A stretch of DNA of 11,153 bases from the IMG/VR virus record IMGVR_UViG_2541047938_000007, positions 1-11,153 of that record; one strand, 5' to 3'. The position numbers and the translations under genes are program-made. Positions 1-10,262 of the stretch are shown piece by piece (positions within the stretch are counted from its first letter, which is position 1; the number at the start of each line of letters is the position of its first letter). The notes under the pieces were generated by a model. That model made no database searches. It was not told where the DNA came from and saw only the letters and a program-made list of their open reading frames with translations. This DNA comes from a virus. Taxonomy: Duplodnaviria > Heunggongvirae > Uroviricota > Caudoviricetes.

Positions 1-321
1 TCATATCGCTGGATTATCGTCTTCCACTGCACGGTTAATGAGATGTGTCAGAATGCCCTTCACATCCACCTCATCAAGAACCTCACCGTCAAGAACTTCA
101 CCATCTACCGTTATCAGTGCATCACCTCTACGCTTGGCAAAGTGACAGCCTCCTGAGTACGAAATCAGGTAGGTGCTATCTGGTGATGGCTTCATTCCCG
201 TTTCTATCACAGCAAACCCATGTGATGTCTCAATCACCAGGCTGTTAGCCGTGACGCCGCAGATAGTCTCTATGGTTAGCGTGCGTTCAATGTAGTCTTT
301 GGCTGGACTTGGAAACCTCAT
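1..321 (-). CDS. hypothetical protein (106 aa), distal gene of a putative SOS-regulated two-gene operon
   Basis: Complete ORF, ATG at 321..319 and stop at 3..1. Its start lies 1 nt after the stop (325..323) of the upstream 79-aa gene, suggesting translational coupling. Contains an internal DGEVLDGEVL duplication encoded by a 15-bp tandem repeat. No family recognised. Confidence 0.5.
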   Translation of the reverse strand: MRFPSPAKDYIERTLTIETICGVTANSLVIETSHGFAVIETGMKPSPDSTYLISYSGGCHFAKRRGDALITVDGEVLDGEVLDEVDVKGILTHLINRAVEDDNPAI

Positions 322-322
322 A

Positions 323-562
323 TCAAAGCCCTCCGTTCGGATTGTACATGAACCACGTCTTGTTCTCCCCGTGGTCAGGGGTGATGTCTTTGAAGCAGGT
401 GGTGTATCTGGCTATCCACTGATTTGCCTCTTCCAGGCTGAGATCCCAGTTGACGTTTAGTAGTTCCTGCACAAAATCAGCAGTTTTCACAATCCTGCGG
501 CCTGACCTTTCATGCACAATAGAGGCCCTGAAGGCAATCTCAATATCTGAACGACGCGGCAT
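323..562 (-). CDS. hypothetical small protein (79 aa), first gene of a putative LexA-regulated operon
   Basis: ATG at 562..560 preceded by GAGGTG about 7 nt upstream (minus-strand reading TTGAGGTGACTACATG). A LexA-box-like palindrome sits 22-37 nt upstream. No family recognised; not obviously DinI-like. Confidence 0.55.
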   Translation of the reverse strand: MPRRSDIEIAFRASIVHERSGRRIVKTADFVQELLNVNWDLSLEEANQWIARYTTCFKDITPDHGENKTWFMYNPNGGL

Positions 563-599: not shown

Positions 600-677
600 C
601 ACATCTTATTCTGATAGTCGATCAAGTTGTCTGTTGGTGCTAAACTTCTGCCTTCTCAGAATTGACTGATTTTTCTA

Positions 678-1040
678 ATGTTAAAACTTTTTGCTAAGTA
701 CACATCGATTGGCGTACTCAACACGCTCATTCACTGGGTTGTGTTTGGTGTTTGCGTGTATGGACTATCAACAAGCCAGGCATTGGCTAACTTCGCTGGC
801 TTCGTCGTCGCAGTGAGCTTCAGTTTCTACGCTAATGCACGGTTCACCTTCAATGCTTCAACATCTACCCTGCGCTATATGCTCTATGTGGGCTTTATGG
901 GCACGCTGAGTGCTGCGGTAGGTTGGGCTGCTGACAGGTGTGGGTTACCGCCAATCGTCACACTGGTGGCGTTCTCAGCCATTAGCCTTGTATGTGGCTT
1001 TTTCTATTCTAAGTTCATTGTCTTTAGGGAAGCGAAATGA
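678..1040 (+). CDS. gtrA: GtrA, bactoprenol-linked glucose translocase (flippase) of O-antigen glucosylation systems
   Basis: 120-aa, very hydrophobic small protein with about four predicted TM segments. ATG at 678; stop overlaps the gtrB start (ATGA at 1037-1040). Size, hydropathy and sequence resemble GtrA/YfdG of serotype-converting phages (recalled). First gene of a three-gene gtr triad. Confidence 0.88.
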
Positions 1041-1948
1041 AAATTTCTCTGGTCGTTCCGGTCTTCAATGAAGAGGCCACGATACCGATTTTCTATAAAA
1101 CGGTGCGAGAGTTCGAGGGGCTAAAGCAATACGATGTTGAAATCGTGTTCATTAATGACGGAAGCAAAGACGCAACAGAATCAATTATTAATGCGCTTGC
1201 TGTTTCTGACTCGTTAGTTACCCCGCTCTCATTTACCAGGAACTTTGGCAAAGAGCCAGCTCTGTTTGCCGGGCTTGAGCACGCTACTGGCGATGCTGTA
1301 ATTCCGATTGATGTTGACCTGCAAGATCCGATTGAAGTCATCCCTCACCTGATTGAGAAATGGCATTCGGGTGCCGATATGGTACTGGCAAAACGCTCTG
1401 ATCGTTCTACTGATAGCAGGCTTAAGCGTAAGTCTGCTGAATGGTTCTACAAGCTGCACAATAAAATTAGCTCACCAAAAATTGAAGAAAACGTTGGCGA
1501 TTTTCGTCTGATGTCTCGCGAAGTTGTCGAAAACATTAAGCAATTACCAGAGCGCAATCTATTCATGAAAGGCGTTCTTAGTTGGGTTGGTGGAAGGACT
1601 GATGTCGTCGAATATGCACGTGCAGAGCGTGTCGCTGGAGATTCCAAATTTAATGGCTGGAAGCTTTGGAACCTTGCCCTTGAAGGCATTACAAGCTTCT
1701 CAACATTCCCATTACGTATGTGGACGTACATTGGATTATTTGTTGCTGGACTTTCATTCCTTTATGGCGCATGGATGATTTTAGATAAGATTCTTTTTGG
1801 CAACAGCGTTCCAGGCTACCCATCACTACTCGTTTCTATCCTGTTCCTGGGAGGCATACAACTTATAGGTATAGGGGTACTTGGTGAATACATTGGAAGA
1901 ATCTATGTGGAAGTAAAGAACCGACCGCGATATATTAAGAAAGGTTAA
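1037..1948 (+). CDS. gtrB: GtrB, bactoprenol glucosyltransferase (GT-2 family)
   Basis: 303 aa. N-terminal GT-2 features ([15 protein letters not shown], DxD-like IPIDVDLQD) and C-terminal hydrophobic helices. Translationally coupled to gtrA. Typical GtrB/YfdH size and order. Confidence 0.9.
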
Positions 1949-1952
1949 TTTC

Positions 1953-3320
1953 ATGAATATTAAGCTTGATGCTAAATTTTTATTCTTTGGTGCGCCATTA
2001 TTTTTTTATTTCCCTTTTATTATCAATGGTGTTTTATATAGAGATGATATAAATCGAGCAACAGAGAATTTTACATACTGGTCTTGGCTGGGAAGACCAG
2101 TATCAGATTTAATTTGGAAAGTCCTATCTTTAGGAGGTCAAGGACCACTCTTAGAACCATTGACGATTATATTATCTATTTTTATATTGGGTTTTTCAGT
2201 AAATCTGTTTTATCAAAAAACCAATCACTTATTTCATGACGCAGGTCCTTTTGTATATATTTTATTAGTAATATCTCCATTTTACACTCAAAATATTTCA
2301 TATCAATATGATGGCATAACGATGTCAATCGCAGTTGCATGCGCACTGATTGCCACAATTGTCACACTGAAAGAAAACTTAATATCATATTTAGTTCACT
2401 GCGCTTTGCTTGTTATAGCAATGTCAATTTATCAGACAACTCTAAATATGTTTGCAATCCTTTCTTTGGCAATTATTTTCGCGAAGACTTGCACACACAA
2501 AGCACTGCCATTGAAATATTTAGCATGCATCGCCTCATCTTTTGTTCTTGCGTTAATTTTATATAAATTTCTAATTATAGATGTATTTATTTCATCCTCA
2601 CGAAGTGACATATCACTAGACAATCTCCACACAAACTTCATTAACTTCTCATCAATTATAGCATCACCATTTAGAGGTTATTTAGTTTCAATATTTTATT
2701 GCATTGTCGCCTTATCTTTTTATTCTTTAATAAGAAAGAGAGGTGTTTTGATTGGAGTAACGTTCCTTTTCTTCTGTGTAATGGCATTCTGTTTAATTGC
2801 AGGTCCATTTATTTTACTAAAAGAAGGGATTGCAGAGCCTAGAATGTTATTAGGATTCTCACCATTTATATTTCTCTGCCTTTACCCACTTAGAGGGAGA
2901 ATCTCAACAGTATCTTCTGTGATAGTTTTTTCTGTATTTACAATAATATCTTACCAATGTGCCTCTTCAATTAAAACACAGAATGATTATGAAAAATCGC
3001 TTGCCATGCAATCCTCTCAGGAAATTATTAACGCGGTAAAGGAAAAGTCTTCAAAGGTTTATATACAAGGCGAATTTCCGCTATCAAAAATATCCAAAAA
3101 CTCTGCGGCGGATAATGAGTTCATTAACAAAATGATTGCCCCCTCCCCTTGGTATACAAGAATGTTAATTAACATTTATTATCCCGGAACTGTACACATT
3201 GATTGGAAGGGAAAATACTTATCTAGTCACGAATTAGAAAAATGCAATGTCTTAAAGAGTAATATCTTACTAACTATATATAACTGTAATAATATTACCT
3301 ACGTTGAAATTCACAAATAA
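1953..3320 (+). CDS. serotype-specific O-antigen glucosyltransferase (GtrC / type-specific Gtr family), polytopic membrane protein
   Basis: 455-aa ORF starting 5 nt after the gtrB stop. Highly hydrophobic N-terminal two-thirds with a more hydrophilic C-terminal domain. Markedly AT-rich relative to gtrA/gtrB, as is typical for the variable third gene of gtr operons. Exact type not recognised. Confidence 0.7.
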   Translation: MNIKLDAKFLFFGAPLFFYFPFIINGVLYRDDINRATENFTYWSWLGRPVSDLIWKVLSLGGQGPLLEPLTIILSIFILGFSVNLFYQKTNHLFHDAGPFVYILLVISPFYTQNISYQYDGITMSIAVACALIATIVTLKENLISYLVHCALLVIAMSIYQTTLNMFAILSLAIIFAKTCTHKALPLKYLACIASSFVLALILYKFLIIDVFISSSRSDISLDNLHTNFINFSSIIASPFRGYLVSIFYCIVALSFYSLIRKRGVLIGVTFLFFCVMAFCLIAGPFILLKEGIAEPRMLLGFSPFIFLCLYPLRGRISTVSSVIVFSVFTIISYQCASSIKTQNDYEKSLAMQSSQEIINAVKEKSSKVYIQGEFPLSKISKNSAADNEFINKMIAPSPWYTRMLINIYYPGTVHIDWKGKYLSSHELEKCNVLKSNILLTIYNCNNITYVEIHK

Positions 3321-3328
3321 ATAGTATT

Positions 3329-3351
3329 GTGCGCCGAAAAACTCGGCGCAC
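3329..3351. terminator. GC-rich hairpin between convergent gtr(type) and tailspike genes; putative bidirectional terminator
   Basis: GTGCGCCGA-aaaac-TCGGCGCAC, a perfect 9-bp stem, sits exactly between the gtr(type) stop (3318-3320) and the tailspike stop (3354-3356). Flanking U-tracts are weak. Confidence 0.45.
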
Positions 3352-3353
3352 TA

Positions 3354-5312
3354 TCATTGAGCTTGAGCCGTTAGTATTTGACCACCAGAATACGCAGTAA
3401 GACTAGTAATTTCATTAGCCAAAAGGACTTTGAACATATTTCGATCTTGACCAAATACAGCACCAGAAAAAAATGTACCAAGATTTCTATTTCCTCCGGC
3501 AGTAGGCATTCTTATAAATAAGTATGATGTTCCTTCATATGTCCCTGTAAACCAAGCATCATAATCTGCGAGAGATTGACTATCACAGTGAGCAGCTCTA
3601 ACTAATTTTGCGCGCGTAGAGATATTGCTGCCTACTGTATTAAAGTCATACGCTCCCGCTATGGGATTAAGATCTTGCCCGCTACGTAATGTATAAATAG
3701 TTCCAATGCACCCACGTCCACCATATTGCCCCCCCATAATGCGATAGTACGGACCCGCCGTTTGGTCTGGATTGGGTAGAGTCAAATCTCTACACATTGT
3801 TGTGCTAAATGTAGGAATGGTGGCCGTGCCTCCATCAAAACCGATAGTACTGAATGTTGCTGTTGTAGTATCATAAGCATTGCGCTGAGGCCACCCTGAC
3901 TCTGGTTTGTTACTATATATAATCTCAAACTTGGCACCATTTAATGTTCTAGATCTTGCCCCATTGCAAATGGTATCTGAACTACAAACCAGTTGCTTAA
4001 TGCTTACTTTTGAATAACCTGATATGTCAAACATATACGTCCCTGCAACTTGAGTTTGTGTATACAGTTGTAGGTTATTTATCTGTAAGTTTGCGCCAGT
4101 AGATTTAATTACAGTGCCATTATTATTCCTATTTGGCTGTTCACAACCTAGCGATGAAATGCTAAATGAACCACTATTAAATACAAATGGTGTACCCAAG
4201 CAATCATCTGAAGCTAGAGGTCCAACTTCACAATAAGACACTGACAATTCGAATGAACAGTAGTTTGAACGAAACACACTGCAATTTGCAATAGTGTAGC
4301 TCGTTCCTCCCTTTATAAAAAACCCTCCGTAAATTCCAGCATTATCAGATCCTTGAACAACTATATCTTTTACTGTAATAGCAACAAATGTATTACCACC
4401 AAAGTAGACACCCCACTTCATGGCGAGGATAAATAGATCACTTAATTCTTGGTAAACCGCTGTATTAGGCGTGTAATACCCATAGCTGTCTTCAGTCGTA
4501 TCAATTATCCTGAGACCGTGAATAACATTCCCACGCTTACCTTTATTATAAAACACCGCGTTCACATCCTGTGTGCTAACGCCTACTTTCCTGATTATAG
4601 ACCCCCTACCTTCACCAACAAAACGACTACCAGGTTGTTGGTAGTATAACTCATTATATACATCCTGAAGATCATATAAAATAACACTATCGGTAATAGT
4701 ATAATCTCCAACTGGAACAAAAATGATTTTACCAAACTGGGCAGACACCTTAGATGCTCTATTAAAAGCGAGTGTCCAATCAGGGTCTGAATCAAGTTTA
4801 AAATCCAATACCGAGATTAATTCAGCGTTTTTGTTATGCTGCGTTCTGCTTGCAGTCCCATCAAAAGGCTGCTTAACAGCAATAAGAGCATCTCCGTATT
4901 CAGGAGATGCCAACATCACCCTAAGAGATGAATCTCCAATGCCTACCCATGCTCCAGCGCCAACACCACCACTTGAATCTGGGGTCGAGCCTGCATTTAC
5001 AACTTTTGGAAGGTCACCATCCCAACGGTAATATTCACCGTCACCATCAGGTAACTTCCAGCGTAAAGCTTGATCAGCTTCAGTTAACGTATTGCCTTCC
5101 TGGAAGGAGTCCATCAAATTCCATCCCATGGATGATAGTTTTTCCTGATAGCGCTTTTCCATTCCATACCAGGTAAGGCGATCAACGCCGAATCTGTCTT
5201 TCCATACCTCATTTTCTTTGTCATTAGAAAGGTAGTCAAAGTTCTGAGAATTGTCGTATAAATCTTTTGCAGCAGCAGACCCCAGCGGATTGCCGGTATT
5301 ATAAGTAGTCAT
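3354..5312 (-). CDS. phage tailspike / tail fibre protein (receptor-binding protein, probable beta-helix O-antigen-recognising domain)
   Basis: 652-aa ORF, ATG at 5312..5310 with GAGG 6 nt upstream. Last gene of the minus-strand tail module, directly after the J-like gene. Gly/Ser/Thr/Asn-rich with beta-strand-like periodicity typical of tailspikes. The N-terminal about 150 aa resemble conserved anchor domains of enterobacterial prophage tail fibres (recalled, unverified). Confidence 0.65.
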   Translation of the reverse strand: MTTYNTGNPLGSAAAKDLYDNSQNFDYLSNDKENEVWKDRFGVDRLTWYGMEKRYQEKLSSMGWNLMDSFQEGNTLTEADQALRWKLPDGDGEYYRWDGDLPKVVNAGSTPDSSGGVGAGAWVGIGDSSLRVMLASPEYGDALIAVKQPFDGTASRTQHNKNAELISVLDFKLDSDPDWTLAFNRASKVSAQFGKIIFVPVGDYTITDSVILYDLQDVYNELYYQQPGSRFVGEGRGSIIRKVGVSTQDVNAVFYNKGKRGNVIHGLRIIDTTEDSYGYYTPNTAVYQELSDLFILAMKWGVYFGGNTFVAITVKDIVVQGSDNAGIYGGFFIKGGTSYTIANCSVFRSNYCSFELSVSYCEVGPLASDDCLGTPFVFNSGSFSISSLGCEQPNRNNNGTVIKSTGANLQINNLQLYTQTQVAGTYMFDISGYSKVSIKQLVCSSDTICNGARSRTLNGAKFEIIYSNKPESGWPQRNAYDTTTATFSTIGFDGGTATIPTFSTTMCRDLTLPNPDQTAGPYYRIMGGQYGGRGCIGTIYTLRSGQDLNPIAGAYDFNTVGSNISTRAKLVRAAHCDSQSLADYDAWFTGTYEGTSYLFIRMPTAGGNRNLGTFFSGAVFGQDRNMFKVLLANEITSLTAYSGGQILTAQAQ

Positions 5313-5369: not shown

Positions 5370-7592
5370 TTAAGAAATGTTGCCGGGGTAAGTGGCATTA
5401 TCATATTGATAGAAAGAGTCGCGATATTCTTTGGCTGTTACCTGACATGTTCCGTCAGACTGCGGTGATATCTCTGAGATTAGTGCACTGTAACCAACAC
5501 GTGAAGATTCGCAGAATATAAGACGTGGAGGTTCTATCGATTGATCATTCAGTATGATGCCAATGAACTCATCCTGTTCAGATACCGATAGTTCATAATC
5601 ACTAACTTTAGTAACTGGAAGCAGACCAGAAGCTGATCCATCCTGGTAGCGAATCAATGCGCGAGGATTGTTGAATGTCCAGTCAAGAGGCTCTGAAACT
5701 GTGAATGTCGTTACGCCGCCACTCGTACTCATATCATCGATCAATGTGCTTATTGTTTTGCTACCAGGAATGTCATCAGTAAACACAATTCTGTCACCTA
5801 CGCTATAGCAAAGTGCATCCATTTCCGTGGTCGTTGTATGGGTAAGACGCTGCTGCCTGTACTTCATCAGTCGTCGCATACCTATCTGATAAGCCCTGTC
5901 CTGGTCAAGAACACCATCAAGATCGTAATCTTCTATTTTCACTGGCGTAGGATTGTCAGACGTTCTGCACTGAACAGTCTCTTCAGCCCACGTAGTGCCG
6001 TTAATGTAAGTGACATCCACTCCATCATAATCATCGGCTGATGGTGCAACGAAGGCCGTTTGAAGCGCTTCTGTCATTTCCTGCGGACTAATTATTCCCG
6101 TCCACGTTTTTACCCCCTCCCTTCCCACTGAAGCCATACCGTCAGACAGCAGAAAATAGCTTTTACCTGCGTTAGTGACTTTCTGTAGCATTTCAAGCGC
6201 GGAAACTGAGTCGGTTGTTGCGTAATCGAAAAACTCGCTATCAGGCGTCCAGTAAGATGATTCCAGCATATCAATCACTTCGTTATCCATCGCAAGCCCT
6301 AACTCATTACCAATGTGGTAAAGCGCGCCTGAAATGCTCCTGGAAATACCGGAATCATAAATGCGTGTGGCGACTACGTTGACACGGCGATCAGACTGAG
6401 CGGCAAGCTTTCCACCTGTTTCGACTGAGACAGCCATAGTGGTTACACCAGAGTATGATGATGGTCTTGAAAGCAACCTCCCCCTTAATGACTGCCAGTA
6501 CATGTTATCCCTGCTGTTATCCTGGCCTTGTTCGTTCGTTCTCCTGCATCTAACCTCCACCAAACCGGCCGATGCCAGCGTGATACGTTCGGTAAAACCT
6601 AACCCATTAATATTTTGCTGATTGTAAGACCCAGTTTTGCTTGTCCATCCTGAACCCGAACCGTAAACACGGTACTGAATTTCCCACTGAACAATCCTGT
6701 TCTGCTTCTTGCCTTTCTTGTTATACCCGCAAATACCGTTAGCCAGGTCAACAACGCCGCCAACCAGGTCAGTTAGTCCCTGAATCACCTGAGGGTCTTT
6801 GAAAACATCGCCCATGTCAGTGATCGCATTCTGTAATCCTGACAGGTCAACATTTGCAAGACCGGTAGCAATCTCAATTTTTACGCCGTTAACCTGCGTC
6901 TCCATGTCTTCAAACAGGGAGTTTACTTTCACCAGTTTTTCGATGTCTGCATCATCAGGGGCAACACCAAACTGCTTTGCCGCGTCCATGTACTGGCGAA
7001 GCTTTTCACCACCCTGATCAAGTAAGGGCAGGAGCTTTGACAGGTCATTACCAAGGCTTTCGAGAATGGTTGTTTTTTCGGCGTTTGTTTTTATCTTACC
7101 AAGAGCATCGCTGATAGCGAGAAGTTGTTTATCAGGTGACTCACCGGCTAATTTTTTTGCGGATAATCCAAGCGCATCAAGCGCACCGACAGCTTCACCA
7201 GATTTATTTAAGACCGCATCACCAATCTTATCGCCAATATCTTTAAAGATATCGGCCATCTGGTCACCAGATACCCCAGCCTTTTCGGCTGCATACTGCC
7301 AAGCCAGCAGAGACTGAGTAGACATATTGAGCGACTTAGCCCAACGGTCTGTTTCAGTGATCTGTTTGGAAGTGGTTTTCAGCAGGTTATAACCAGCAAC
7401 GCCTACACCAATTGCCGCAGCGCTTGCTGCTGTCGCAAAAGCGGTGAACGCGGTGGCCGCAGCCTTGGCGTCGGATTGTACCTGTTTACGCCATTTTTGA
7501 GATGCTCGCTCAGACTGGCTTAGGCCAGAGACAAAACCACCAACCTTAGCAACAAGGTCGATAGTCAACGTGCCGAGGGATTTACCAGCCAT
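5370..7592 (-). CDS. tail protein: tape-measure-like N-terminal region fused in frame to a host-specificity (lambda J-like) region
   Basis: 740 aa. ATG at 7592..7590 lies 1 nt after the stop of the GT frameshift product, the expected tape-measure position. Residues 1 to about 290 are Ala/Lys/Gly-rich and coiled-coil-like, typical of a tape-measure N-terminus. From about residue 300 there are J-like motifs (LRGRLL...PSSY; AYQIGMRRL...FSVGDRIVFTDD; PPRLIFCESSRV), aligned by eye to the central part of lambda J. Confidence 0.65.
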   Translation of the reverse strand: MAGKSLGTLTIDLVAKVGGFVSGLSQSERASQKWRKQVQSDAKAAATAFTAFATAASAAAIGVGVAGYNLLKTTSKQITETDRWAKSLNMSTQSLLAWQYAAEKAGVSGDQMADIFKDIGDKIGDAVLNKSGEAVGALDALGLSAKKLAGESPDKQLLAISDALGKIKTNAEKTTILESLGNDLSKLLPLLDQGGEKLRQYMDAAKQFGVAPDDADIEKLVKVNSLFEDMETQVNGVKIEIATGLANVDLSGLQNAITDMGDVFKDPQVIQGLTDLVGGVVDLANGICGYNKKGKKQNRIVQWEIQYRVYGSGSGWTSKTGSYNQQNINGLGFTERITLASAGLVEVRCRRTNEQGQDNSRDNMYWQSLRGRLLSRPSSYSGVTTMAVSVETGGKLAAQSDRRVNVVATRIYDSGISRSISGALYHIGNELGLAMDNEVIDMLESSYWTPDSEFFDYATTDSVSALEMLQKVTNAGKSYFLLSDGMASVGREGVKTWTGIISPQEMTEALQTAFVAPSADDYDGVDVTYINGTTWAEETVQCRTSDNPTPVKIEDYDLDGVLDQDRAYQIGMRRLMKYRQQRLTHTTTTEMDALCYSVGDRIVFTDDIPGSKTISTLIDDMSTSGGVTTFTVSEPLDWTFNNPRALIRYQDGSASGLLPVTKVSDYELSVSEQDEFIGIILNDQSIEPPRLIFCESSRVGYSALISEISPQSDGTCQVTAKEYRDSFYQYDNATYPGNIS

Positions 7593-8287: not shown

Positions 8288-8689
8288 TTAGCTCGTTGGT
8301 TGGGCCTTTGGAACCCAAACACCTTGCCCTGAACGCTGAATGGTTGCGGAAGTTTGCACGACCGTATTCGCCTGGAAGTCGAACGGGAAATCTGAAACAT
8401 AACCCTGGAATACATACCAGGTACGTGTATCCGGCAGAGAAAGACCATCAACTGCATCTGGATCACCAGACGTCGCTACCGTTGGTTCATCCGTTCCGTC
8501 AGCCCAGCCAATAGCGAAGGTCAGGTTTGTCTGGTCACTGGATTCAGCCAGGTTGCTCAGCATTACATGGCTGGAGTTTGCCGGGTCTGCGTTAAGAGCT
8601 ACAGTAGCCTGACCGGGGGTGCGCAGACCTTTTTTGTAGGAACGAGTATTGGTTTCACTCAGACAGGTATCTTCAATCTGGTCTGACAA
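8288..8689 (-). CDS. major tail protein-like ORF, possibly 5'-truncated (lambda V position)
   Basis: 133-aa ORF in the ORF track that actually starts at a TTG with no convincing RBS. Occupies the position just upstream of G/GT, and has weak by-eye resemblance to the lambda V core. It is in the same frame as the upstream 56-aa ORF, separated by a single TGA. May be a remnant rather than an intact gene. Confidence 0.4.
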
Positions 8690-8967: not shown

Positions 8968-9468
8968 TTAGCTGGTTGAGCCAGTGCTGTAATCCACGTC
9001 AGAGATAACGGCTACGGCTGCATCACGGCGACGCTTCCAGTTAATCCAACGCTCGGCACGGATTGCCACGCTGTTGGTCTGGAACATAGACACCAGTTCA
9101 ACTGGAGTTGGCGTTGTGCTGTCGTGGGTCGGATCGCTCTGCATTTCCAGAGAAGCTTCGCGAGACATATCAACGGCGACGCCGCCATCATCTGCCAGAT
9201 AAACATCTGGTGCGTTAACCAGTACCAGTTGGTTGCCAACGTACTGTGAAACGATCACCGGCAAGCCCTGGAACGTACCGCCCAGCATGGTCATATCTGG
9301 GTATTCTTTCTGACCAAGCGCGTTTTTACGCATAGACAGAGTAAGTGCCGTAGTGCTGGACATCAGCCATACCGCACCATTCGGCTGCAGGTTGTTCGTA
9401 ATGAACTGACCAAATGCTGCAGAAGCATCAGTACAGGCTAACCATGAGCATAGTTCGATGTCACGCGT
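8968..9468 (-). pseudogene. 5'-truncated phage structural gene fragment (capsid or head-tail protein-like C-terminal part)
   Basis: The reading frame is open from 9468 down to the TAA at 8970..8968. The annotated ATG at 9363 has no RBS and is probably an internal Met. The fragment runs head-on into the 5' end of the integrase fragment. Family assignment is tentative. Confidence 0.4.
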
Positions 9469-10057
9469 TTACAGGTGGGGATATCAACGTGGATTTGTGC
9501 CAGGCAACCCATGCGTAGGCGTCGATAAATACCCTAAACCTCAGCGCGACCGATACATTACGGATGAAGAGTATTTAGCGATTTATGACTGTGCTACTGA
9601 TCCGGTCAAAGCAGCAATGGAAATTGCTTATCTCTGTGCCGCCAGGGTTTCCGATGTTCTGAAAATGGACTGGAATCAGATAATGGATAAAGGAATTTTC
9701 ATTCAACAGGGTAAAACTGGAGTTAAGCAGATTAAAGCGTGGACAGACCGTTTGCATTCAGCAGTCAATCTTTGCAGGAAATCAGGGGAAGATGGCGCTG
9801 TCATCAAAACCATGTACGGAGAGCGATATTCCTATAAAGGTTTCAATGAAGCCTGGAGAAAGGCGAGAAATGCGGCTGCTGAAAAAATTGGCAGACCGTT
9901 AGACTGCACGTTCCATGATCTGAAGGCGAAAGGCATTTCTGACTATGAAGGAAGTGGCCGCGATAAGCAAAAATTCAGTGGTCACAAAACTGAATCACAG
10001 GTGCTGGTATACGACAGGAAAGTAAAAATCAGCCCAACTTTGAACAGAAAAATGTGA
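9458..10057 (+). pseudogene. tyrosine recombinase (phage integrase), C-terminal catalytic-domain fragment, 5'-truncated
   Basis: 199-aa ORF with catalytic-domain features (AARVSDV Arg region, HDLKAKG, GHKTESQVLVYDR with the C-terminal Tyr). Lacks the N-terminal arm-binding and core-binding domains; there is an in-frame stop at 9407-9409 just upstream. It is transcribed toward the 3' end of the adjacent tRNA, as expected for an int next to attL. Confidence 0.8.
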
Positions 10058-10172: not shown

Positions 10173-10262
10173 TGGCGGAGAGAGGGGGATTTGAACCCCC
10201 GGTAGAGTTGCCCCTACTCCGGTTTTCGAGACCGGTCCGTTCAGCCGCTCCGGCATCTCTCC
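10173..10262 (-). tRNA. serU: tRNA-Ser (anticodon CGA)
   Basis: The minus strand reads GGAGAGATGCCGGAGCGGCTGAACGGACCGGTCTCGAAAACCGGAGTAGGGGCAACTCTACCGGGGGTTCAAATCCCCCTCTCTCCGCCA (90 nt). It has a 7-bp acceptor stem, anticodon stem CCGGT/ACCGG with loop CUCGAAA (anticodon CGA), a long variable arm, a T-loop GGTTCAAATCC, and an encoded CCA. Confidence 0.9.

Follow-up and report, generated by a model that had tools for sequence, protein, structure and literature searches.

A new GtrC family, with the O160 O-antigen as its probable substrate, encoded in a gtrABC cassette of the usual kind in an Escherichia coli prophage remnant

The stretch of DNA analyzed here, 11,153 nucleotides long (the window; IMG/VR record IMGVR_UViG_2541047938_000007), carries a cluster of gtr genes, predicted to direct glucosylation of the O-antigen, and matches scaffold KE702357.1 of the E. 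coli assembly GCA_000461255.1 along its entire length with 100% identity. It ends in the gene for tRNA-Ser(CGA), serU, and in mtfA, while zinT flanks the locus on the other side; between zinT and serU/mtfA lies a ∼10-kb prophage remnant of the siphovirus type. The cluster consists of three genes on the plus strand: gtrA (678..1040), coding for a small membrane protein of 120 amino acids, the predicted flippase of undecaprenyl-phosphate-glucose (Und-P-Glc); gtrB (1037..1948), coding for a 303-amino-acid glucosyltransferase of the GT2 family predicted to act on bactoprenol (undecaprenyl phosphate, Und-P); and an AT-rich gene of the gtrC type (1953..3320), whose 455-amino-acid product is a predicted serotype-specific glucosyltransferase with a GT-C fold. 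The first two genes overlap by 4 nucleotides, and a gap of 4 nucleotides separates the stop codon of gtrB from the ATG start codon of gtrC, which is preceded by the Shine-Dalgarno-like sequence GAAAGG. There is no internal stop codon in gtrC, so the open reading frame (ORF) is intact; its disruption in the source strain had been named as an observation that would count against the original prediction of a type-specific gtr gene at this position. A G+C-rich hairpin with a 10-bp stem (3329..3351) separates gtrC from the tailspike gene, which is transcribed toward it, and is likely to serve as a bidirectional terminator. With gtrA in the first place, a close relative of known GtrB proteins, a divergent, AT-rich third gene coding for a polytopic protein, and a tRNA-associated (pro)phage as the carrier, positions 678-3320 can be predicted to represent a complete gtrABC O-antigen glucosylation operon.

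The assignments of the first two genes are straightforward. GtrA matches the Pfam family PF04138 (E value 3.5e-14; 53.4 bits against a cutoff of 26.1) and phrog_2224 (E value 4e-67), whereas GtrB matches PF00535 (E value 3.9e-31) and the PHROG family “GtrB” (E value 4.8e-177). At the protein level, GtrB shares 87 to 89% identity with the GtrB proteins of SfI, SfII, SfIV, SfV, and P22 and with YfdH of E. coli K-12, and GtrA shares 80 to 86% identity with its counterparts from the Sf phages, P22, and K-12. The description of gtrAB as conserved, given in the original prediction, thus holds for the proteins but not for the DNA, which shows only ∼75 to 80% identity to other gtrAB genes among complete E. 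coli genomes. Because both proteins are so similar to characterized ones, the donor is almost certainly Und-P-Glc.

In its base composition, gtrC stands apart from everything around it. Its GC content is 0.320, as compared to 0.479 in gtrA, 0.439 in gtrB, 0.442 in the whole window, and 0.471 in the ORF that combines the tape-measure and J proteins, in full agreement with the original description of the third gene as far more AT-rich than gtrA, gtrB, and their surroundings. The bias extends over the entire gene: all 300-bp windows from 1951 to 3300 have GC contents of 0.30 to 0.36. A mere reflection of a hydrophobic amino acid composition could be ruled out, because the GC content at the third codon positions (GC3) is 0.272 in gtrC but 0.414 in gtrB and 0.529 in gtrA, whose product is also a membrane protein. 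The same step in GC content is seen in SfII, SfIV, SfV, P22, and the K-12 element CPS-53, where gtrAB are at 0.41 to 0.45 and the third gene is at 0.28 to 0.33.

The identification of the third gene product as a type-specific Gtr, originally proposed from the sequence alone, is borne out by its position directly after gtrA and gtrB and by several profile and structure comparisons. The protein scores 72.4 bits against the PF14264 (Glucos_trans_II) profile, for which the gathering cutoff is 30, with residues 22 to 305 aligned to profile positions 3 to 314 of 317, and matches the PHROG family “GtrC-like O-antigen conversion” with an E value of 2.7e-50. It contains at least nine hydrophobic segments, and its AlphaFold model, with a predicted local distance difference test (pLDDT) score of 94.8, displays the GT-C fold in fold comparison. 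No match to any NCBIfam model was found, nor any match in PDB by sequence search. Across 69 homologs with 19 to 35% identity, nine alignment columns are invariant (D31, D32, R35, R48, D120, Y160, Q161, Y204, and R297), and the GtrC encoded in the window retains all nine of these residues. In GT-C enzymes, the catalytic acidic residues sit after the first transmembrane helix. In this GtrC, the D31-D32 pair directly follows the first hydrophobic helix (residues 10 to 28), and the predicted model has conserved acidic residues in the first extracytoplasmic loop; catalysis probably relies on this invariant pair. An acyltransferase-type GtrC, as in the BTP1-like family II, could be ruled out, as the protein belongs to PF14264 and has a GT-C fold.

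Comparison with the characterized Gtr proteins showed that this GtrC does not belong to any of the known types with which it was compared. The only characterized Gtr among those fetched that shows significant pairwise similarity is the GtrC protein of phage P22 (Salmonella family I), with 24.6% identity and an E value of 3e-31 over 464 columns. Neither BLASTP nor phmmer produced a match better than an E value of ∼1 with GtrI, GtrII, GtrIV, GtrV, or YfdI, the lowest value being 1.2. Membership in PF14264 is shared by GtrII (106.6 bits) and P22 GtrC (117 bits); GtrI, GtrIV, GtrV, and YfdI fall outside of this family. When 1.84 billion cluster representatives, standing for ∼15 billion proteins, were searched exhaustively with HMMER, 791 relatives were retrieved at E values of ≤0.001, but nothing above 35% identity outside the protein's own E. 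coli cluster. The nearest of these, WP_130933976.1 from Hafnia alvei (35%) and HEM8610298.1 from Citrobacter amalonaticus (32%), both aligned over the full length, are members of PF14264 that are annotated as “glucosyltransferase domain-containing proteins” and, by the standards used for GtrC families, are too distant for a shared specificity. A word-index protein search, in which low-complexity membrane words saturated the candidates, returned only the protein's own cluster and one weak match, with none at 50 to 90% identity. No phage record containing this gtrC was found, the best tblastn identity being 28%, and no mention of the RefSeq accession number WP_021571324 was found in the papers searched. 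Members of one GtrC family are typically >96% identical, whereas different families have very little identity to each other (Davies et al., PMC3688519). Because the best characterized relative is only 24.6% identical, the GtrC encoded in the window is, by this standard, a separate family as judged from its sequence. Membership in GtrX, GtrIc, or the Salmonella GtrC families II to X is very unlikely, these being set apart through the 35% ceiling of the search rather than by pairwise comparison. The inability to assign the gene to a known type, noted at first inspection, has accordingly withstood the BLASTP and HMM comparisons suggested at the time, in which near-identity to a characterized GtrC-type protein would have settled the matter the other way.

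The contrast between the genes of the cassette is informative about its origin. In phages whose GtrB proteins are 87 to 90% identical to the one in the window, GtrC is just 24 to 28% identical. Together with the step in base composition, this uncoupling of GtrB and GtrC supports cassette exchange, that is, an independent acquisition of gtrC. A related arrangement appears to exist in another genus: in a single assembly of Citrobacter amalonaticus, HEM8610301.1, a homolog of the 79-amino-acid protein encoded upstream of gtrA (orf79, see below), is three accession numbers away from the GtrC homolog HEM8610298.1. This proximity suggests a conserved orf79-gtrA-gtrB scaffold with a swapped third gene.

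The phyletic distribution of this GtrC is narrow. The exact protein was found on at least 36 contigs, all of them from E. coli, and the gene is present in a single one of the 5,426 complete RefSeq genomes of E. coli, that of strain CUWW10 (NZ_CP182145.1). Over 10 assemblies, the module is at least 99.96% identical and occupies two tRNA sites, serU and thrW. The 5,584-bp block spanning the UmuD-like ORF, orf79, gtrABC, and the tailspike gene is 99.98% identical in GCA_054243465.1 and GCA_907166305.1 (locus positions ∼6000 to 14300), where it resides in a different prophage remnant, next to the tRNA-Thr(CGT) gene thrW and proA. In these thrW copies, genes coding for ThsB-TIR and SLATT-domain proteins, of the type involved in antiphage defense, are found directly upstream. 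Classically, thrW is where P22 and the serotype-converting phages of Shigella integrate. Among the remnants at serU, different tail genes have been lost in different strains, while the block from gtr to the tailspike persists. Because the block is nearly identical across the two sites while the surrounding prophage sequences decayed in different ways, the available genomes suggest that the gtr module is being retained.

A link to a particular O-antigen emerges from the same genomes. In the PGAP annotation of CUWW10, the O-antigen locus includes wzx and wzy of the O160 family, a gene for a Stealth-domain protein, and a glycosyltransferase gene. All four accessions displayed for this allele of the O160-cluster glycosyltransferase come from assembly batches that also contain gtrB, gtrC, or the tailspike gene (EEZ768x, EKF739x, ELR624x, and EJF35x), and a fragment of the same glycosyltransferase cluster comes from one more such batch, EGI6720x. 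Thus, at least five assemblies, in addition to CUWW10, combine the gtr module with one and the same O160-cluster allele. As for the strain from which the window derives, the protein accession numbers WP_021571320 to -25 (UmuD-like ORF to tailspike) and WP_021571338 to -45 (including hisD, hisC, hisB, O160 wzy, and gnu) run consecutively in chromosome order, and the scaffold of the window is the only one with WP_021571325. Because of this numbering, we infer that the source strain carries that same O160 wzy allele. The O160 repeat unit is therefore, on genomic association, the probable substrate of GtrC.

Fifteen of the 16 complete genomes with O160 wzy lack this gtrC, including NCTC11023, whose intact O160 cluster encodes the Stealth protein and three glycosyltransferases. 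Because these genomes do without it, gtrC is dispensable for the O160 antigen, a putative accessory modifier in one O160 sublineage and no part of O160 synthesis. The same count could also be read in favor of an active enzyme with some other acceptor, such as a different O-antigen in the strains with the module at thrW or an undecaprenyl-pyrophosphate-linked or periplasmic glycan, for example, the enterobacterial common antigen or the lipopolysaccharide (LPS) core. The acceptor cannot be read from the sequence: the GtrC proteins of P22 and of LT2 (family III) act on the same galactose residue although they are <18% identical (PMC3688519). However, every characterized enterobacterial gtrABC cassette with a PF14264 protein as the third component modifies the O-antigen (PMC7685785), the adjoining tailspike gene implies an O-antigen-specific parent phage, and the co-occurrence described above involves just one O160-cluster allele. 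An acceptor other than O160 is accordingly regarded as improbable, the least likely of the explanations considered here. The more ambitious proposal, that this GtrC is the first Gtr for O160 and defines a new glucosylated variant of this phosphate-containing antigen, restricted to one clonal lineage and missed by O-typing, is tentative and could easily prove wrong.

Turning to expression, the switch of phase-variable gtr operons, the Dam/OxyR module, comprises four GATC sites, arranged as two pairs in overlapping OxyR sites, ∼128 bp upstream of the transcription start. The 115-bp region upstream of gtrA (563-677) contains exactly one GATC, at 620-623, or -58 from the ATG codon. Aligned on the gtrA start codon, the GATC sites of P22 are found at -135, -122, -71, and -58, while the upstream regions of the SfII, SfIV, and K-12 gtr operons have only the -58 site, just like the window. 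The sequence around this site is homologous in the window (TCGATCAA ... TGCTAAACT) and in P22 (TCGATCAA ... TGCTACACT). Positional homology to P22, SfII, SfIV, and K-12 allows a putative gtr promoter to be placed at 618..646 on the plus strand, with the single GATC, equivalent to GATC-4, in the -35 region and an extended -10 element, TGcTAAACT, at 638-646. GATC-4 sits inside the -35 element (Davies et al., PMC3688519). The gtr(SCB67_I) operon of S. Choleraesuis, in which only the -35/GATC-4 and -10 elements are left, has been shown experimentally not to undergo phase variation, and in the P22 context a single mutation in GATC-1 is enough to abolish switching (PMC3688519). The original observation of one GATC at 620-623 instead of the four-site module is thus correct, GATC-4 alone being present, and the suggestion drawn from it, that expression is not phase variable through Dam/OxyR, is well supported by this GATC-4-only remnant and by the gtr(SCB67_I) precedent (PMC3688519). 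Because only GATC-4 is kept, phase variation of the operon by Dam/OxyR is unlikely, and its genes are probably expressed from a constitutive sigma-70 promoter.

Homology to other gtr upstream regions ends at approximately -75, and the sequence further upstream contains a strong LexA (SOS) box and a divergent gene. The box (582-601, with the CTGT-N8-ACAG core at 584-599), CACTGTATACATATACAGCA, matches the consensus TACTGTATATATATACAGTA in 17 of the 20 positions; the CTGT-N8-ACAG pattern occurs once in the window, as against 0.14 occurrences expected by chance. It is located 20 to 40 bp upstream of orf79 (323-562, minus strand), which codes for a 79-amino-acid member of phrog_3893, and its other end is ∼16 bp away from the downstream -35 element of the putative gtr promoter. 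Together with the following UmuD-like ORF (1-321, minus strand; 106 amino acids; PHROG “UmuD-like protein,” E value 8.6e-41), orf79 forms a two-gene unit divergent from gtrA that is presumably under SOS control via the LexA box. More speculatively, gtr transcription could respond to the SOS status of the cell, which would then substitute for the Dam/OxyR switch that has been lost. The UmuD-like protein keeps an N terminus (FPSPAKDYIE) and a C terminus (DDNPAI) of the HumD type, whereas its middle part is unlike that of the 127-amino-acid HumD-family proteins that follow orf79 homologs in other Enterobacteriaceae.

The rest of the window documents the decay of the prophage. The tailspike gene (3354..5312, minus strand), convergent with gtrC as in P22, codes for a 652-amino-acid protein with the PF18668 (Tail_spike_N) domain and matches to phrog families of tail fibers and spikes. 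At silent sites, the part of this gene that encodes the receptor-binding region (nucleotides 450-1959 of the gene) is as AT-rich as gtrC, with a GC3 of 0.284, as compared to 0.373 in the part that encodes the N-terminal adaptor. Its closest phage relative, a hypothetical protein of Salmonella phage SKML-39, shows 38% identity and provides no clue to receptor specificity. Next to it, a 740-amino-acid ORF (5370-7592, minus strand) joins a tape-measure protein (residues 1 to 286) to a C-terminal, J-like tail-tip segment (residues ∼283 to 739); this in-frame fusion looks like a deletion scar of a decaying prophage. Other strains have a 744-amino-acid version of it or further deletions. The remnant also encodes a tail assembly chaperone, a piece of the major tail (tail-tube) protein (8288-8689, minus strand; 133 amino acids), a C-terminal fragment of the major head protein (8968-9363, minus strand; 131 amino acids), and a 5'-truncated tyrosine integrase (9458..10057, plus strand; 199 amino acids; PF00589), which marks the prophage end and whose copy in CUWW10 has 329 amino acids. 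The attachment site beside mtfA is the serU gene (10173..10262, minus strand), as detected by ARAGORN and as annotated by RefSeq in the CUWW10 locus. Because the head, tail, and integrase genes are truncated, the element is a noninducible remnant.

Judging from close homology, GtrB would transfer glucose from UDP-glucose to undecaprenyl phosphate at the cytoplasmic face, and GtrA would flip the resulting Und-P-Glc to the periplasmic face. In the periplasm, GtrC would then attach this glucose at a single, defined hydroxyl group of the O-unit, which is most probably that of O160, as indicated by its family, fold, and genomic association. The modified antigen would have altered antigenicity and would protect the cell against O-antigen-specific phages, including the parental phage that left its tailspike gene beside the operon and that could no longer readsorb. 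The combined interpretation, namely, a gtrABC cassette that resides in a decayed prophage of an O160-cluster lineage, is driven by a promoter that is not phase variable, and encodes a GtrC of a new family glucosylating probably O160, is considered likely.

Several observations weigh against this interpretation. The enzymatic activity, donor sugar, acceptor, regulation, and modification of the O-antigen are all deduced from sequence comparisons, and most O160 genomes lack the gene. Retention of the module is not universal: in CUWW10, separate copies of IS1 interrupt gtrB, the tailspike gene, and the O160 wzx/glycosyltransferase region. Further, two Salmonella GtrC families cause no detectable LPS change (Davies et al., PMC3688519), and the operon, lying as it does in a prophage remnant, could be silent. 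These last points, along with the split gtrB of CUWW10, would fit an inert relic of a dead prophage, with an operon that is intact because the remnant is young, that is unexpressed or has no matching acceptor, and that leaves the O-antigen unaffected. Such a relic would be in keeping with the loss of the replication, lysis, and most structural genes, with the tape-measure::J fusion, and with the truncated capsid and integrase genes; besides, the carriers differ by 0 to 4 single-nucleotide polymorphisms over 6.7 to 11 kb, which is too little time to judge selection. On the other hand, gtrA, gtrB, and gtrC are all full length and translationally coupled, GtrC has every family-invariant residue, and the same 5.6-kb module survives at both serU and thrW in remnants that differ in their neighboring losses. 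Even in CUWW10, gtrB has been lost along with the O-antigen flippase gene, as would be expected if gtr mattered only when the O-antigen is made; this strain is probably rough, having lost gtr function together with its substrate. On balance, the relic explanation appears unlikely, and a functional cassette in an O160 sublineage is the preferred reading.

When Gtr enzymes add glucose side branches, enterobacteria change in serotype, in their susceptibility to phages, and in their recognition by antibodies. Half of the E. coli O-units with side-branch glucose owe it to genes located elsewhere than in the O-antigen cluster, most of which have yet to be identified (PMC7685785). The gene described here is genuine and intact, and its product represents a GtrC family that had not been characterized before, within a gtrABC cassette of the usual kind. 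Its mechanism follows the standard scheme, and GtrC proteins are already known to be very diverse; what is useful here is the concrete link to O160, which can be tested. If the tie between this GtrC and O160 is true, genotypic O-typing underreports antigenic diversity in the O160 serogroup, and a glucosylated O160 variant would be missed by serological or wzx/wzy-based O-typing alike. In that case, there would also be a further pair of enzyme and acceptor for a family in which sequence does not yet allow specificity to be predicted.

Among the known systems, the cassette resembles that of P22 in its gtrA-gtrB-gtrC order, the convergent tailspike gene across a terminator, and the proximal promoter with a GATC at -58; a terminator is annotated at the position matching the 3329-3351 hairpin in P22 as well as in SfV. 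P22 GtrC, which glucosylates the galactose of the O-unit and thereby generates the O:1 factor, is slightly longer (486 versus 455 amino acids), and P22 differs from the window in host species, O-antigen, attachment site, and phage type, the tail genes in the window being siphovirus-like. The phages that encode GtrI, GtrII, GtrIV, and GtrV of S. flexneri and the K-12 element CPS-53 follow the same cassette logic, with GtrB at 87 to 89% identity, GtrA at 82 to 86%, and an AT-rich third gene (0.28 to 0.33), and some carriers have the module at thrW, as do the Sf phages. Compared to other GT-C enzymes that use polyprenyl-phosphate sugars (Pmt, STT3/PglB, ALG6, AftA/B, and ArnT), with which it shares 5 to 15% sequence identity, the GtrC encoded in the window is smaller, with a short C-terminal soluble domain of ∼118 amino acids, and it is predicted to modify the repeat unit of a polysaccharide, whereas the acceptors of those enzymes are protein, lipid A, or arabinan.

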